From: Candidatus Omnitrophota bacterium
Lineage (GTDB): Bacteria; Omnitrophota; Gorgyraeia; Zapsychrales; Fredricksoniimonadaceae
NCBI GenBank assembly: GCA_044225175.1
Contig: JBGAJA010000001.1
Location: forward strand, 678,711-742,710
Direction of reading: 5' to 3'
Length of the DNA stretch: 64,000 bases
Positions 52,672 to 58,477 of this stretch are shown piece by piece (position 1 is the stretch's first letter; every line of letters starts with the position of its first letter). The notes beneath the pieces were generated by a model. It did not search any database. It was not told the DNA's origin and saw only the letters and a program-made list of their open reading frames with translations. A program made the translations under genes and the position numbers.

Positions 52672-52701
52672 TGGCTCCCCCTAGTGGACGAGTTTTGCAA
52701 C
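52672..52701. repeat. Short copy of a repeated 3'-UTR element resembling the tRNA-Asn 3' end (minus-strand ...GGGGGAGCCA)
   Basis: tggctccccctagtggacgagttttgcaac shares tggctcccc / ggac / gttgcRaaac with the copy at 53123-53170 and its first 9-10 nt with the tRNA-Asn 3' end at 58401. Located between a stop codon and a terminator. Confidence 0.4.
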
Positions 52702-52726
52702 TGGTTATCCCATCAACATGAGGAAA

Positions 52727-53050
52727 TTATTTTTTAAATATTTGAGCAACTTGAGGTATATAAAGATAACTAAACAGCGCTAAGGAAACGATCGTATTGA
52801 ACTGAATTATTGATTCGTTTGCAGAATATAAAACATAAACTGAATAAGAAAGAATTGCGAATAATAACAATATGGCTATGTTTCTTGCCCACAGCTTTAA
52901 CATCAACAATCCTATTCCACTAAAAAATAGCAATGTACCTAACCAGCCAGTTAAGAAATTTGTGGGTCCTGGGCCGATGTTCGTAAAACAAGCGAATAAC
53001 AATCCGTATAGACTGATTATTATTCCAATTATTCTTGTTAATATCTTCAT
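52727..53050 (-). CDS. Small 3-TM membrane protein
   Basis: 107 aa, hydrophobic, no recognisable motif; flanked on both sides by the repeated element. Confidence 0.4.
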   Translation of the reverse strand: MKILTRIIGIIISLYGLLFACFTNIGPGPTNFLTGWLGTLLFFSGIGLLMLKLWARNIAILLLFAILSYSVYVLYSANESIIQFNTIVSLALFSYLYIPQVAQIFKK

Positions 53051-53070
53051 TTATCTAAACCTTTCAAAAA

Positions 53071-53115
53071 TCTAAAAATAAAACCCGTTGCAAGTATAAC
53101 ACTCACAACGGGTTT
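53071..53115 (-). terminator. Rho-independent terminator (10-bp stem aaacccgttg, T-run on the minus strand)
   Basis: aaacccgttg...caacgggttt with minus-strand tail ttttattttt; downstream of the HEPN-like gene. Confidence 0.5.
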
Positions 53116-53122
53116 CTACAAT

Positions 53123-53170
53123 TGGCTCCCCGAGATGGACGCAAAGCGCACCATAATGAAGTTTCGCAAC
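53123..53170. repeat. Long copy of the repeated 3'-UTR element / degenerate tRNA-Asn 3'-end remnant (candidate att copy)
   Basis: tggctccccgagatggacgcaaagcgcaccataatgaagtttcgcaac aligns to the tRNA-Asn 3' end as tggctcccc(c gc)gag[T-loop region missing]ggac(a)agcgc..., same orientation as the tRNA. Confidence 0.4.
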
Positions 53171-53242
53171 ATTATGTAGTTCAATTGGTTATAAGAATGC
53201 AGAAAATTCGGGGTCGTGGCACAAGAATTATTCTTAGCTAAC

Positions 53243-56635: not shown

Positions 56636-56744
56636 TAGTGCCTTTTAAACTTAATTATAAGAAGATCCCTTTAATTATGTTTAAAGTTTACACTATGATT
56701 CCGCATTTTGCCACTTTTTGTCATTTGCAACAGCACTTTCGTAA

Positions 56745-56788
56745 GCCAAAAGGAAAACCCCGCCTAGCATGCTCCATACCAAGCGGGG
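56745..56788 (-). terminator. Rho-independent terminator
   Basis: ccccgc-(19 nt)-gcgggg followed on the minus strand by ttttccttttgg; downstream of the 103-aa gene. Confidence 0.45.
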
Positions 56789-56814
56789 ATTCCATCCCAC
56801 AAAAACCAGCTAAT

Positions 56815-57126
56815 TTATCGTCCTTTGAAATACAAGTTCACCAACTCAGCCGCCAGCTTCACCTTACCACCGATGTGCCAATTCGTATTCCACTCCGGAT
56901 CAACCCGTGATTTATAATCGTAGATCGTAAACACAAGACCGTTGATCCTACCAACCCATTCAGCCTTGATTTTTCCATCTAATGATGCGCCCAACTGAGG
57001 CTTGCCGAAAACCCGGACGATATCCTCGTACCGGGTGCCTTCGGGTAAGTACCCCTGACAACCAGTACCATCGTGCGACACGTCGCCCATAGCGACATTG
57101 ATGTCGATCGTAGCCCGGACTTTCAT
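56815..57126 (-). CDS. Hypothetical protein (103 aa) in the GC-rich island, translationally coupled to the upstream gene
   Basis: Start chosen at MKVRATIDI... because its ATG overlaps the upstream TGA (ATGA). No recognisable domain. Local GC is about 50%. Confidence 0.45.
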   Translation of the reverse strand: MKVRATIDINVAMGDVSHDGTGCQGYLPEGTRYEDIVRVFGKPQLGASLDGKIKAEWVGRINGLVFTIYDYKSRVDPEWNTNWHIGGKVKLAAELVNLYFKGR

Positions 57127-57497
57127 GCTTGCACCTTCTTTGAACCCCAGCCAGCTTTCCATCTTGTAACAGCGCCAGTGACAACCTGATCAATTTGCTC
57201 TGACGTAACACCATCAGCCAGCACCTGCCCCAGCTCCGCCTTGTTAAGAACGCGAAAATTCTTGATGCCCCTCTCCTTGGCCAACAGCATAAGAGCCTGC
57301 CGAGTTTCGGGTAAAGCAACCGGGGGTTTAACAACTTTCTTTTCTTTCTTAGCCACAATGCCCTCCTTGTTATGATTTGTTTGAACGTCCGATGGTCGTA
57401 TAAGGCCATACGGTTCAATAGTTGGCAAGGCATTGTTATCTATTTGAAGATCAAAAAAGCCGCCTGCCCGATGATCAGAATTGCCCCGCGCCCGCAT
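57123..57497 (-). CDS. Small protein with C-terminal Rho_N-like (Rho termination factor N-terminal) helix-hairpin domain; start uncertain
   Basis: C-terminal ...TRQALMLLAKERGIKNFRVLNKAELGQVLADG resembles the Rho_N/SAP-like motif found in small phage proteins. The long ORF (to 57662) overlaps the recombinase remnant, so an internal Met start is likely. Confidence 0.35.
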   Translation of the reverse strand: MRARGNSDHRAGGFFDLQIDNNALPTIEPYGLIRPSDVQTNHNKEGIVAKKEKKVVKPPVALPETRQALMLLAKERGIKNFRVLNKAELGQVLADGVTSEQIDQVVTGAVTRWKAGWGSKKVQA

Positions 57498-58442
57498 TCT
57501 TCCCAGACGACATTGCTCATCAACACTTACCTCGGCAAAAAAGAAATCAACAAGGCATGGAAAACCAAAGACCAAAGCACCCTGCCAGAGAAAAGACGCT
57601 ATCGTCTCGCGGACGCAGTCTGGGAACCCCTGATCGATGAGCAGACATTCAATCAGGTTCAATTATTATTAAAGAAAAACTACAACTCAAAACACAATGC
57701 CGCTTTAGCAATCAAACATACCTATTTATTGAATTCGGGAAAATTATGGTGTGACGTTTGCGGAAGTGAAATGGAAGGCGGATCGGGGACGGGTCGTTTT
57801 CAGAAAAAATATTATTATTACCTCTGTAAGAAGACTCAATGCAAATTCAGGGTGCCTGCGGATGAGATCGAAACCTTTATCATCGGATACATCAAGGAAC
57901 TTGCCACGAAAAAAGAAGATTTGAAATTAATCATCCAAGCAACCAATGGCCAACTGCACAAGGAACTCCCCCAGCTCGTAACCCAAAAATCTTGCCTGCA
58001 AAAAGAGCTGACACAGGTACAAAACCTTGCCCAAGGCATTCTTGAAAAATGGTCATCCCTTGCAACGGACGATAATGCGCTTTTCATAAAAGATAAACTG
58101 GATGAACTTGGGAAACGCCGGAAGGACATTGAAAACGGAATTTCAACGCTGGAGATTATGATCGGGGAGATTGAGCGGGAATCGGTGAACCAAGAGATGA
58201 TGCAGTTAATGCTCACAAAGTTCAGTGAGATTTTTGACTCCATGAGACCCTACCAGCAGAAGGAACTCATCAACATCCTCCTGCATAAAGCCTGCCTGAG
58301 CCAATCAGAAATAAAAATAGCCTTGCACGGTAAACAAACCGATACAAGGCTATTTGATATTGGGACACCCCAGGGCGAAATACGCCCTGGGATATCCGAA
58401 TGGCTCCCCCGCGAGGGCTCGAACCTCGGACAAGCGCGTTAA
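57372..58442 (+). pseudogene. Large serine recombinase, N-terminally truncated: resolvase catalytic domain missing; recombinase-domain tail, zinc ribbon and coiled coil retained
   Basis: ...AVWEPLIDEQTFNQVQLLL (end of the Recombinase domain); LWCDVCGSEMEGG...KKYYYYLCKKTQCKFRVPADEIE (zinc beta-ribbon); then a coiled coil. No S-R catalytic N-terminal domain is present. The 3' end runs into the tRNA-Asn gene. Confidence 0.6.
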
Positions 58443-58477
58443 CAGCGCGCTGCTCTACCTAACTGAGCTACAGGGGA
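58401..58477 (-). tRNA. tRNA-Asn (anticodon GTT), CCA encoded
   Basis: Reverse complement folds as acceptor TCCCCTG/CGGGGGA (one G-U pair), D arm GCTC-AGTTAGGTA-GAGC, anticodon arm GCGCG-CTGTTAA-CGCGC, variable loop TTGTC, T arm CGAGG-TTCGAGC-CCTCG, discriminator G, then CCA; 77 nt. Confidence 0.85.

Follow-up and report, generated by a model that had tools for sequence, protein, structure and literature searches.

We analyzed a 64-kb stretch of DNA from an Omnitrophota genome (referred to here as the window) and the interval beside its tRNA-Asn gene. It is quite probable that positions 52641-58477 form a composite dead islet at the 3' end of tRNA-Asn, made up of a decayed prophage and two older insertion scars. 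The original prediction had described an immobilized remnant of an integrative element at tRNA-Asn with a truncated large serine recombinase (LSR), and this description was borne out. The recombinase is a phage integrase for tRNA-Asn, and the 3' end of this gene is a recurrent target of LSR-integrating elements in this Omnitrophota clade. The islet is a well-known kind of genomic island and not a new system. Sequences compared with the window are denoted by L numbers.

The integrase remnant occupies 57513-58442 on the plus strand and corresponds to residues ~243 to 549 of a 550-residue protein. The mechanically called open reading frame (ORF), 57372-58442(+), begins in unrelated phage DNA and overlaps the tRNA 3' end by 42 nt. 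In Pfam searches, this ORF matched only positions 43 to 102 of the 102-position Recombinase profile (E = 2.3e-4) and Zn_ribbon_recom (E = 1.2e-7), and no Resolvase domain was found in it. The remnant was assigned to the phrog_95 integrases (3e-26). Full-length homologues (L020, L079, and L026) carry Resolvase at residues 12-162, Recombinase at 186-297, and the zinc ribbon at 319-352; compared to them, the window copy has lost the catalytic domain and roughly half of its Recombinase domain. In agreement with this, the full-length LSRs of L020 and L014 matched the window in tblastn at 47% identity over residues 237-549 only. Together, the Pfam and tblastn results confirmed the predicted truncation of an LSR that overlaps the tRNA 3' end. 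An upstream start yielding a full-length recombinase was ruled out, as a low-stringency six-frame search of the whole 64 kb recovered no N-terminal piece. The remaining 310 codons are free of stops and frameshifts, and the zinc-ribbon region aligns continuously with the full-length homologues.

As predicted, a tRNA-Asn(GTT) gene lies at 58401-58477 on the minus strand (ARAGORN; Rfam tRNA, 62.8 bits). It is intact and intron-free, with an encoded CCA, and an Rfam scan of 51.5-59 kb revealed no other RNA family. The full-length LSR homologues are 550 to 567 aa long and lie after recR, overlapping the tRNA-Asn 3' end in L020 and L014. The final 14 codons of the window remnant (WLPREGSNLGQAR) come from the tRNA antisense, and the TGG of the GGGGGAGCCA-type junction is the Trp codon of the conserved WLP tail of the integrase. 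LSRs of the same family abut the tRNA-Asn 3' end in L014, L017, L020, L029, L079, and L081, and in L080 another truncated tRNA. The closest of them, in L079 (62% identical), is flanked by phage early genes coding for a sigma factor, an exonuclease, a replication initiator, a primase-helicase, and a ParB-methyltransferase. We also observed that the integrase ORFs of the window, L014, L020, and L079 all stop inside the opposite-strand tRNA gene, with their last residues (WLPREGSNLGQ.. or WLLG) set by the tRNA sequence. These C-terminal residues would differ in the excised form of the phage.

RecR, DnaX, and nearby gene products assign the window to Candidatus Omnitrophota. A scan of genome contigs with the window RecR identified 46 related loci, and the closest RecR match (83%) was found in contigs of metagenome-assembled genomes (MAGs). 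A conserved block consisting of a 758-aa gene, a 299-aa gene, dnaX, recR, and tRNA-Asn was present in these 46 loci, and synteny broke off precisely at tRNA-Asn. None of the window genes from 0-58 kb was found in up to 10 kb after recR in any of the 46 relatives, and the contigs of about 12 of them terminate no more than ~400 bp from the tRNA or recR. The break in synteny and these contig ends are typical of a strain-variable site. Moreover, the occupied tRNA-Asn genes of the relatives, which have an LSR beside them, all end in the GCCA form, GGGGGAGCCA, whereas in about 24 relatives without an adjacent element the tRNA reads GGGGGAG, followed by TT or CTT and a terminator. This difference indicates that the element supplies the last bases of the tRNA and that the integrase ORF crosses the junction. 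True partial copies of tRNA-Asn (22 to 32 nt) lie downstream in L003, L019, and L027, and the site has thus been used by more than one kind of element.

Beside the integrase fragment lies a GC-rich patch. Homology identifies it as the last two genes of a lambda-like siphovirus of Omnitrophota. This right-end remnant (56740-57512, minus strand, 49.7% GC) contains a 78-aa gene with a GTG start (57123-57359, minus) and a 103-aa gene (56815-57126, minus), followed by a terminator detected in a terminator scan (56758-56788). The two small genes and the patch had been proposed as cargo of the element. Instead, they correspond to the conserved last two genes of a siphovirus lineage. The 103-aa protein has 328 database relatives (protein clusters) at 76 to 93% identity, mostly in short metagenomic contigs and Omnitrophota MAGs. 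On three long contigs among L051-L054, its gene ends a series of lambda-type tail genes (gpL/Phage_tail_L, gpK/NlpC/P60, and gpJ) and small lysis-region genes. A homologue of the 78-aa gene precedes it in those phages, and the same order occurs in 24 IMG/VR contigs. Nucleotide homology to phages spans 56813-57513 at 70 to 85% identity, reaching 82 to 85% with L055-L057. No Pfam hit was obtained for the 78-aa protein, which had been described as Rho_N-like.

The compositional claims of the original prediction held in part. A GC content of 50% had been given for 1.7 kb, but the region from 56.6 to 58.4 kb averages 45.5%, and only 56.74-57.51 kb reaches 49.7 to 51%. The latter holds the GC maximum of the window, about 3.4 standard deviations above the mean of 37.8%. 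The LSR fragment has a GC content of 43.7%. As predicted, the neighboring kinase-fusion gene, which is described below, is GC elevated (43.1% compared to the window mean of 37.8%; GC3, 0.43 compared to 0.31 +/- 0.07). Among the 63 ORFs of the window, the sole outliers in codon usage and GC3 are the kinase gene, both small genes, and the LSR fragment, all within 53.76-58.44 kb. In the related phages, GC falls from 44-52% to 34-46% directly beyond the 103-aa gene.

Several features of this phage end were noted alongside. A 37-nt noncoding motif upstream of the 78-aa gene (57398-57434) is 86 to 92% identical in about 20 phage loci, compared to ~70% in the surrounding DNA, and is probably a late-region regulatory site. 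The 103-aa protein is more conserved than RecR between the same genomes, while its neighbors vary (L051-L078). An AlphaFold model of this protein (pLDDT 85) reached TM scores of up to 0.78, with matches only to uncharacterized viral proteins, namely those of tailed phages and giant viruses; a fold search against the PDB gave nothing significant. The slot right after the 103-aa gene is hypervariable in the related phages and mostly holds defense genes (type I/II/III restriction-modification, BREX-like genes, SIR2-HerA, and Z1/Vsr/HATPase_c_3), as seen in L052 (8439-14533), downstream of the 103-aa gene in L054 and L066, and from 10400 onward in L058, L061, L069, L075, and L076. This slot often opens with one of three small conserved genes of the HTH or RHH type.

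The LSR fragment and the phage end are likely to be the two ends of a single prophage whose interior was lost, judging from the sequence at their junction and from related phages. Phage homology stops at 57513: an antisense peptide, KIKKA.C.MI.IAPRPHSSQTT, is common to the window and L056, after which the two diverge. The LSR homology starts at LLINTYLGKK, exactly where the similarity to L056 ends. A single deletion would explain this abrupt switch, with a junction at 57512/57513 that has phage late-region DNA on its left and LSR codon ~243 on its right. The phage contig L080/L162 carries a tRNA-adjacent LSR, early genes, TerL, homologues of both small genes, gpW, and portal, capsid, and tail genes, and this content places the LSR and the gene pair in one phage lineage. 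In intact relatives, all phage genes point away from the integrase on the opposite strand. The same polarity is seen in the window, where the LSR lies on the plus strand and points toward the tRNA while the 103-aa and 78-aa genes are encoded on the minus strand, and a simple internal deletion predicts just this arrangement. Of the modules of an intact prophage, only the last two late-region genes and the 310 integrase codons are left.

Lacking both the catalytic domain and the phage interior, the element can neither excise nor replicate, in agreement with the prediction that it is immobilized. That it is also old, as had been suggested, is doubtful: the 310-codon LSR fragment is still open, the GC content is phage-like, and nucleotide identity to IMG/VR phages is 77 to 85%. 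Since the remnant has no stop or frameshift and keeps a phage-like composition, the deletion is probably not ancient.

The outer boundary of the islet is marked by copies of the tRNA end. The 9-mer TGGCTCCCC occurs three times in the 64 kb (58401, 53123, and 52672), always on the plus strand and always inside the interval, compared to an expectation of 0.30. The predicted sharing of a co-oriented core between the tRNA end and two distal sites was thus verified. At the tRNA, the core covers 58401-58410 (tRNA 3' end GGGGGAGCCA; plus strand TGGCTCCCCC) and forms an attL-type junction. A hairpin, CCCAGGGCG-AAATA-CGCCCTGGG (58369-58391), which is the element-side arm, lies within the LSR coding sequence at a distance of 9 nt from the tRNA 3' end. 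Corresponding hairpins stand after the core at both distal copies as well as in L079 and L080. Read in the tRNA orientation, each distal copy consists of an arm, the core, and a hairpin. Distal junction 1 (53080-53152, minus) contains a non-tRNA arm at 53132-53152 (GGTGCGCTTTGCGTCCATCTC in the tRNA orientation), the 9-mer core copy 2 at 53123-53131 (GGGGAGCCA), and the hairpin/terminator R1 at 53080-53116. Distal junction 2 (52641-52704, minus) contains the conserved 21-nt arm A at 52684-52704 (CCAGTTGCAAAACTCGTCCAC), a TA, core copy 3 at 52672-52681 (GGGGGAGCCA), and the hairpin/terminator R2 at 52641-52664. R1 and R2 were both detected in the terminator scan.

The flanks of both distal copies recur in other genomes. 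R1, a 29-nt hairpin, is near-identical in L011, L023, and L030, where it always stands directly after the core, and a variant is present in L169. R2 resembles the tRNA-Asn trailer of L027 and the distal junction of L019. In 585 kb of recR loci, arm A (up to 4 mismatches allowed in the 21-mer) was found at 15 sites, each with a GGGG-rich core and a hairpin after it. All of them lie downstream of recR, with five copies in L015 and three in L023. The control loci (2.27 Mb) contained no copy of arm A with the core. Another type of arm (GAAAAAGTTCGGATTTCTGGGGG) showed the same behavior, with four copies in L011. On these grounds, both distal copies are taken as genuine recombination junctions of earlier integrations and not as chance matches.

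Chance is what an explanation without any mobile element would call for, with core repeats arising at random and the GC patch reflecting gene-specific constraints. The core is short (9 to 10 nt), and the N-terminal module of the kinase is GC richer across its family, as this explanation would have it. Conversely, none of 100 shuffles reached three copies of the core, its flanks are conserved across genomes, and the recombinase fragment is accompanied by phage DNA that is 70 to 85% identical to IMG/VR phages. Chance origin of the core repeats is thereby ruled out, and we regard this explanation as already refuted.

The original prediction had interpreted the interval as one or two tandem elements, with the HEPN-like, kinase-fusion, two small, and membrane-protein genes all as cargo and with the distal repeats as decayed attR sites. 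The three core copies are indeed real and co-oriented, true 22- to 32-nt partial copies of tRNA-Asn do exist in L003, L019, and L027, and the kinase gene is compositionally atypical. However, the similarity between the distal copies and the tRNA was not significant beyond 9 to 10 nt: the proposed longer alignment of the 53123 copy, with the T-loop deleted, was no better than shuffles outside the core (p = 0.40 and 0.81 for the two copies). The two distal copies resembled each other weakly (p ~0.07). The "ggac" match is part of a conserved non-tRNA arm also present in other genomes. As for a displaced tRNA repeat at the far end, only 9 to 10 nt are repeated, and the flanks are conserved junction sequences in relatives. 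The distal copies thus do not appear to be decayed partial tRNAs: they share only the core with the tRNA, and their conserved parts are a non-tRNA arm and a hairpin. In addition, the two small genes belong to the conserved core of a phage lineage. In its details, the tandem-cargo version is refuted and we consider it very improbable; its general idea survives in the composite islet.

We favor the following sequence of events for this composite islet. The prophage scar at 56740-58400 would derive from a temperate lambda-like siphovirus whose integrase gene sat at the tRNA-proximal end and read across the junction, the phage supplying the final tRNA bases, including CCA. One internal deletion would then have joined integrase codon ~243 to DNA just upstream of the 78-aa and 103-aa genes, taking away the catalytic domain and the whole phage interior. 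Further out lie the kinase fusion and the HEPN-like gene, closed by the 9-nt copy of the tRNA end and hairpin R1. Outermost is a cassette with a single membrane-protein gene, closed by the 21-nt arm, the 10-nt core, and hairpin R2. Each fresh integration at the tRNA would shift the prior junction outward, that is, serial integration at a regenerated end followed by deletion. From known serine-integrase biology, recombination would take place at a short core between a phage site and the tRNA 3' end. The crossover would fall inside GGGG|AG, at or near the GA of GGGGGAG, a placement suggested by the imperfect mirror symmetry CGTCCA...GGGG|AG...TGGACG as read from the sequence. The order of events, the one-prophage origin, and the crossover site are what we infer from these features.

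Several observations weigh against this account. The CGTCCA of the distal arms is the mirror image of the TGGACG/TTGACG arms beside other LSR types (L020 and L026) and not of the window's own TTCGGATATCC arm, for which a mirroring arm was sought and not found. Arm A with the core was absent from 2.9 million IMG/VR contigs (a scan with the exact 18-mer gave 14 hits, all chance matches in coding regions without the core) and is thus not a known phage attP. In 27 related phage loci, neither a tRNA-like fragment nor GGAGCCA was found after the 103-aa gene. Likewise, no GGGGAG core lies between the terminator of the 103-aa gene and the kinase gene, which implies that the far junction of the phage is either the copy at 53123, in which case the kinase and HEPN-like genes would be phage cargo, or lost. 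Finally, no contig joins the closest LSR type (window/L079) to the closest type of 78/103-aa genes (L055-L060). The one-prophage link comes from the more distant phage L162, where the gene pair stands beside the terminase and not at the genome end. A search for LSR and 103-aa genes on IMG/VR contigs of the same name returned only L080/L162, and a broad LSR scan returned mostly relatives at 25 to 30% identity.

The missing contig would also be expected if two unrelated events had taken place, in which a non-phage LSR island decayed at the tRNA and a fragment of a phage late region was separately inserted beside it. In L020 and L014, moreover, the LSR is followed by small ORFs and IS3 elements, with no obvious phage genes in the available 2 to 3 kb. 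We find two such events rather improbable, as the closest LSR (L079) lies within a phage early region, L162 joins both parts in one phage, and a single deletion would account for the orientation and the one clean junction.

The one-gene cassette between the distal junctions is 0.45 kb long and encodes a 107-aa small membrane protein (52727-53050, minus), for which Pfam, PHROG, NCBIfam, and PADLOC gave no family match. Similar units are arrayed in relatives. L011, L015, L023, and L035 contain arrays of 2 to 5 arm-plus-core sites spaced 0.2 to 4.9 kb apart, with no integrase. The genes between junctions in relatives are nearly all co-oriented with the tRNA and code for toxin-antitoxin pairs, ATPases, and secreted or membrane proteins. 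Identical arms pair with different hairpins in different genomes. In L026, a unit without an integrase lies next to the tRNA, and beyond it follows a complete, older LSR element with an ORF that spans the distal core; here the outward displacement of older elements by new arrivals is seen directly. Two further layouts were observed and suggest inversions between oppositely oriented cores. In L002, tRNA-Asn (10672-10747) is inverted relative to recR, with an arm-plus-core junction (14412-14420) 3.7 kb away; in L023, a whole three-site arm A array (10688-12230) is inverted.

These arrays raise the possibility, which we consider an unlikely one, that the tRNA-Asn 3' end serves as the docking site of an integron-like serine-recombinase system across this clade. 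Cassettes of 0.2 to 5 kb without an integrase, each starting with a hairpin and ending with a conserved 21- to 23-nt arm and a GGGGAG core, may be taken up one behind another and exchanged between genomes. Their cargo would be toxin-antitoxin pairs and secreted or membrane proteins, as well as TspO in L169. LSR phages may use the site and perhaps service it, and the two distal units of the window may be two such cassettes. Applied to the window, the distal units without an integrase (perhaps including the kinase/HEPN unit) would have been inserted singly at GGGGAG by a serine recombinase acting in trans, and the prophage would be the latest user of the site. The arrays without an integrase, the shared arms with different hairpins, the absence of arm A from IMG/VR phages, and the unit of L026, which stands nearer to the tRNA than the older LSR element and so arrived later, all speak for it, as does the imperfect inverted repeat around GGGG|AG that arm A forms with arms beside several LSR genes. 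That dyad symmetry was judged by eye, without statistics; neither a circular cassette nor an empty/filled pair nor a trans-acting recombinase was seen; and the same picture could result if larger elements lost their integrase modules time and again, as described for tRNA islands. For the window, we hold this scenario to be a minor possibility and retain the composite islet.

The largest gene of the islet is the kinase fusion (53762-56635, minus), which encodes 957 aa with a signal/transmembrane segment, an N-terminal module of ~370 aa, an unassigned middle, HATPase_c (residues 760-875), and a C-terminal tail of ~60 aa. A promoter-like site lies at 56683-56654, and a hairpin terminator near 53702-53738 was seen by eye. 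Pfam identified HATPase_c (8e-25) but no HisKA in this protein, and the histidine-kinase models of NCBIfam aligned from about residue 700 only, far below their cutoffs. The N-terminal module is Omnitrophota specific, with more than 4000 homologues fused to many other enzymes. We observed that this module (55 to 83% identity) and the tail (GGIDL...FDPAM, residues ~890-950) frame more than 4000 Omnitrophota proteins, whose middles include radical SAM and PEP-utilizing enzymes, methyltransferases, EPSP synthase, glycosyltransferases, TPR/HEAT repeats, and HATPase_c. Several paralogues occur per genome, one of them (P0203) on the same 820-kb contig as the window, and module and tail together look like a lineage-specific scaffold for targeting or display. 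The adjacent gene encodes a 141-aa HEPN-like protein (53243-53668, minus) with an RNLCDH (Rx4H) motif in its sequence; its Pfam match to HEPN was subthreshold (E = 0.0049; 17.5 bits against a cutoff of 22), and neither PADLOC nor NCBIfam matched it. Like the membrane-protein gene, it has host-like codon usage (GC3, 0.25). PADLOC returned nothing for the HEPN-like, 78-aa, 103-aa, or membrane proteins.

As the kinase and HEPN-like genes lie between the tRNA and bona fide distal junctions, they belong to the island. The claim that the kinase fusion is cargo of the element holds insofar as the gene is inside the island and GC elevated; it and the HEPN-like gene may have come with the phage or with an earlier element. 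That both were cargo of this phage is a serious possibility, although we incline slightly against it. The slot after the 103-aa gene holds variable cargo in related phages, and in L056/L057 the 103-aa gene is directly followed by a gene for a 1590-aa protein that shares the N-terminal module (50% identity) and the C-terminal tail. Moreover, no junction separates the terminator of the 103-aa gene from the kinase gene, and the composition of the latter is atypical. Against this, the family of the N-terminal module is huge, mostly consists of chromosomal genes, and has several members per genome; homologues of the kinase stand in plain chromosomal context in L041 and L020; and the arm at 53132-53152 is of the CGTCCA class that mirrors other LSR types. 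The proposal that each gene of the islet has its own intrinsic terminator was supported for the 103-aa gene and at both distal copies by the terminator scan, and for the kinase gene by eye, but none was found for the HEPN-like gene.

No simple empty site was present among the 46 relatives, none of which shares a gene with the window beyond tRNA-Asn. Exact-protein lookups with RecR and TspO returned nothing beyond an identical 2.1-kb contig (SRR28480388). The metagenome contig L169, whose RecR and TspO are 79% and 72% identical to those of the window, appears to be the nearest thing to an empty site. Its order is recR, tRNA-Asn, an HNH ORF, a lipoprotein gene, a 128-aa ORF, a HAD hydrolase gene, TspO, ACTCGTCCACTAGGGGGAG (arm A and core), a CBS-domain gene, a core with an R1-like hairpin, and prfC. 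L169 contains no LSR, phage genes, kinase, HEPN-like gene, or any other island gene of the window. The expected absence of the island content from the closest relative with recR/tRNA-Asn and TspO was thus found, and gene content here supports an insertion in the window lineage. In L169, TspO lies inside the array and is not the fixed flank of the island that it had been taken for.

The tRNA-Asn locus of the relatives showed one more kind of insertion. In many relatives, tRNA-Asn(GTT) is interrupted by 220 to 700 bp, which Rfam identified as a group I intron in all six loci tested (54 to 101 bits): L011 (10680-10890), L014 (11028-11259), L016 (10985-11229), L021 (11016-11245), L024 (10763-11017), and L036 (11454-11723). 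A further split tRNA-Asn locus is found in L169 (~7232-7466). An HNH-endonuclease-like ORF lies within the intron (L014) or just beyond the tRNA (L169) in several loci. We know of no report of group I introns in bacterial tRNA-Asn. At the other side of the conserved block, c-di-GMP-I riboswitches in L016 (5078-5171) and L021 (5681-5771; minus) are located immediately ahead of where the homologue of the 758-aa gene starts, and on the other strand. The corresponding position of the window falls at or past its right edge (from about 63960).

The islet can be compared to several known systems. LSR prophages, such as those with the phiC31, Bxb1, TP901-1, and A118 integrases, and XisF-type excision elements have the same domain order as the full-length homologues described here. 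As in the window, the integrase of LSR prophages sits at the extreme end of the prophage beside the junction, and only a short identical core is shared, with arms that are imperfectly symmetric as read from the sequence. Well-studied LSR phages mostly target protein-coding genes. Here, unlike in those prophages, integration is at the very 3' end of a tRNA gene, the integrase ORF continues across the junction with its last ~14 codons being tRNA antisense, and, unlike in functional LSR prophages, the window copy is devoid of its catalytic domain.

Tandem, decaying insertions are known from Islander-type tRNA islands (PMC4383910) and from the tycheposons of Prochlorococcus (bioRxiv 10.1101/2020.12.28.424599). 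In tycheposons, pieces of integrases and residual repeats lie dispersed across the island, and a minority employ a large serine recombinase (bioRxiv 10.1101/2020.12.28.424599). These systems share with the window integration at a tRNA 3' end, the pushing of older elements outward by newer ones, integrase fragments, and leftover junction repeats. Conversely, the leftover repeats of the window consist of 9 to 10 nt of the tRNA plus a conserved non-tRNA arm and not of 20- to 50-nt partial tRNAs as in tRNA islands, the host belongs to Omnitrophota, and the proximal element is the remnant of a tailed phage. Cis-mobilizable elements (CIMEs) of streptococcal integrative and conjugative elements are att-flanked islets without an integrase that accrete. 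The small att-bounded units without a recombinase that stand in tandem with an integrase element in L026, and the distal units of the window, resemble them, except that there is no conjugative element here. The likeness to integrons lies in co-oriented, promoterless-looking cassettes of one or two genes with a conserved site-like end and a hairpin, stacked at one point. In contrast to integrons, an IntI tyrosine recombinase and attI/Pc are missing, the sites do not resemble attC in sequence, the anchor is a tRNA 3' end, and the recombinases are of the serine type; neither the interval nor the arrays examined contained a tyrosine recombinase.

On its own, a dead prophage with old insertion scars at a tRNA gene is routine. 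Omnitrophota are known almost solely from metagenomes, and the islet offers a clean, coordinate-level example of how a tRNA island builds up and decays in this group, including an exact deletion junction. It also defines a lineage of temperate lambda-like Omnitrophota phages whose serine integrase has the terminal bases of tRNA-Asn as its target and is read across the junction. The GC-rich small genes drop out of any functional story around the kinase fusion, which is itself only putatively linked to the element. The arrays without an integrase are the one aspect that possibly goes beyond the known picture of tRNA islands. Conserved arm-plus-core arrays occur in many genomes, and if they are mobilized in trans, they would represent a serine-recombinase counterpart of integron cassettes.

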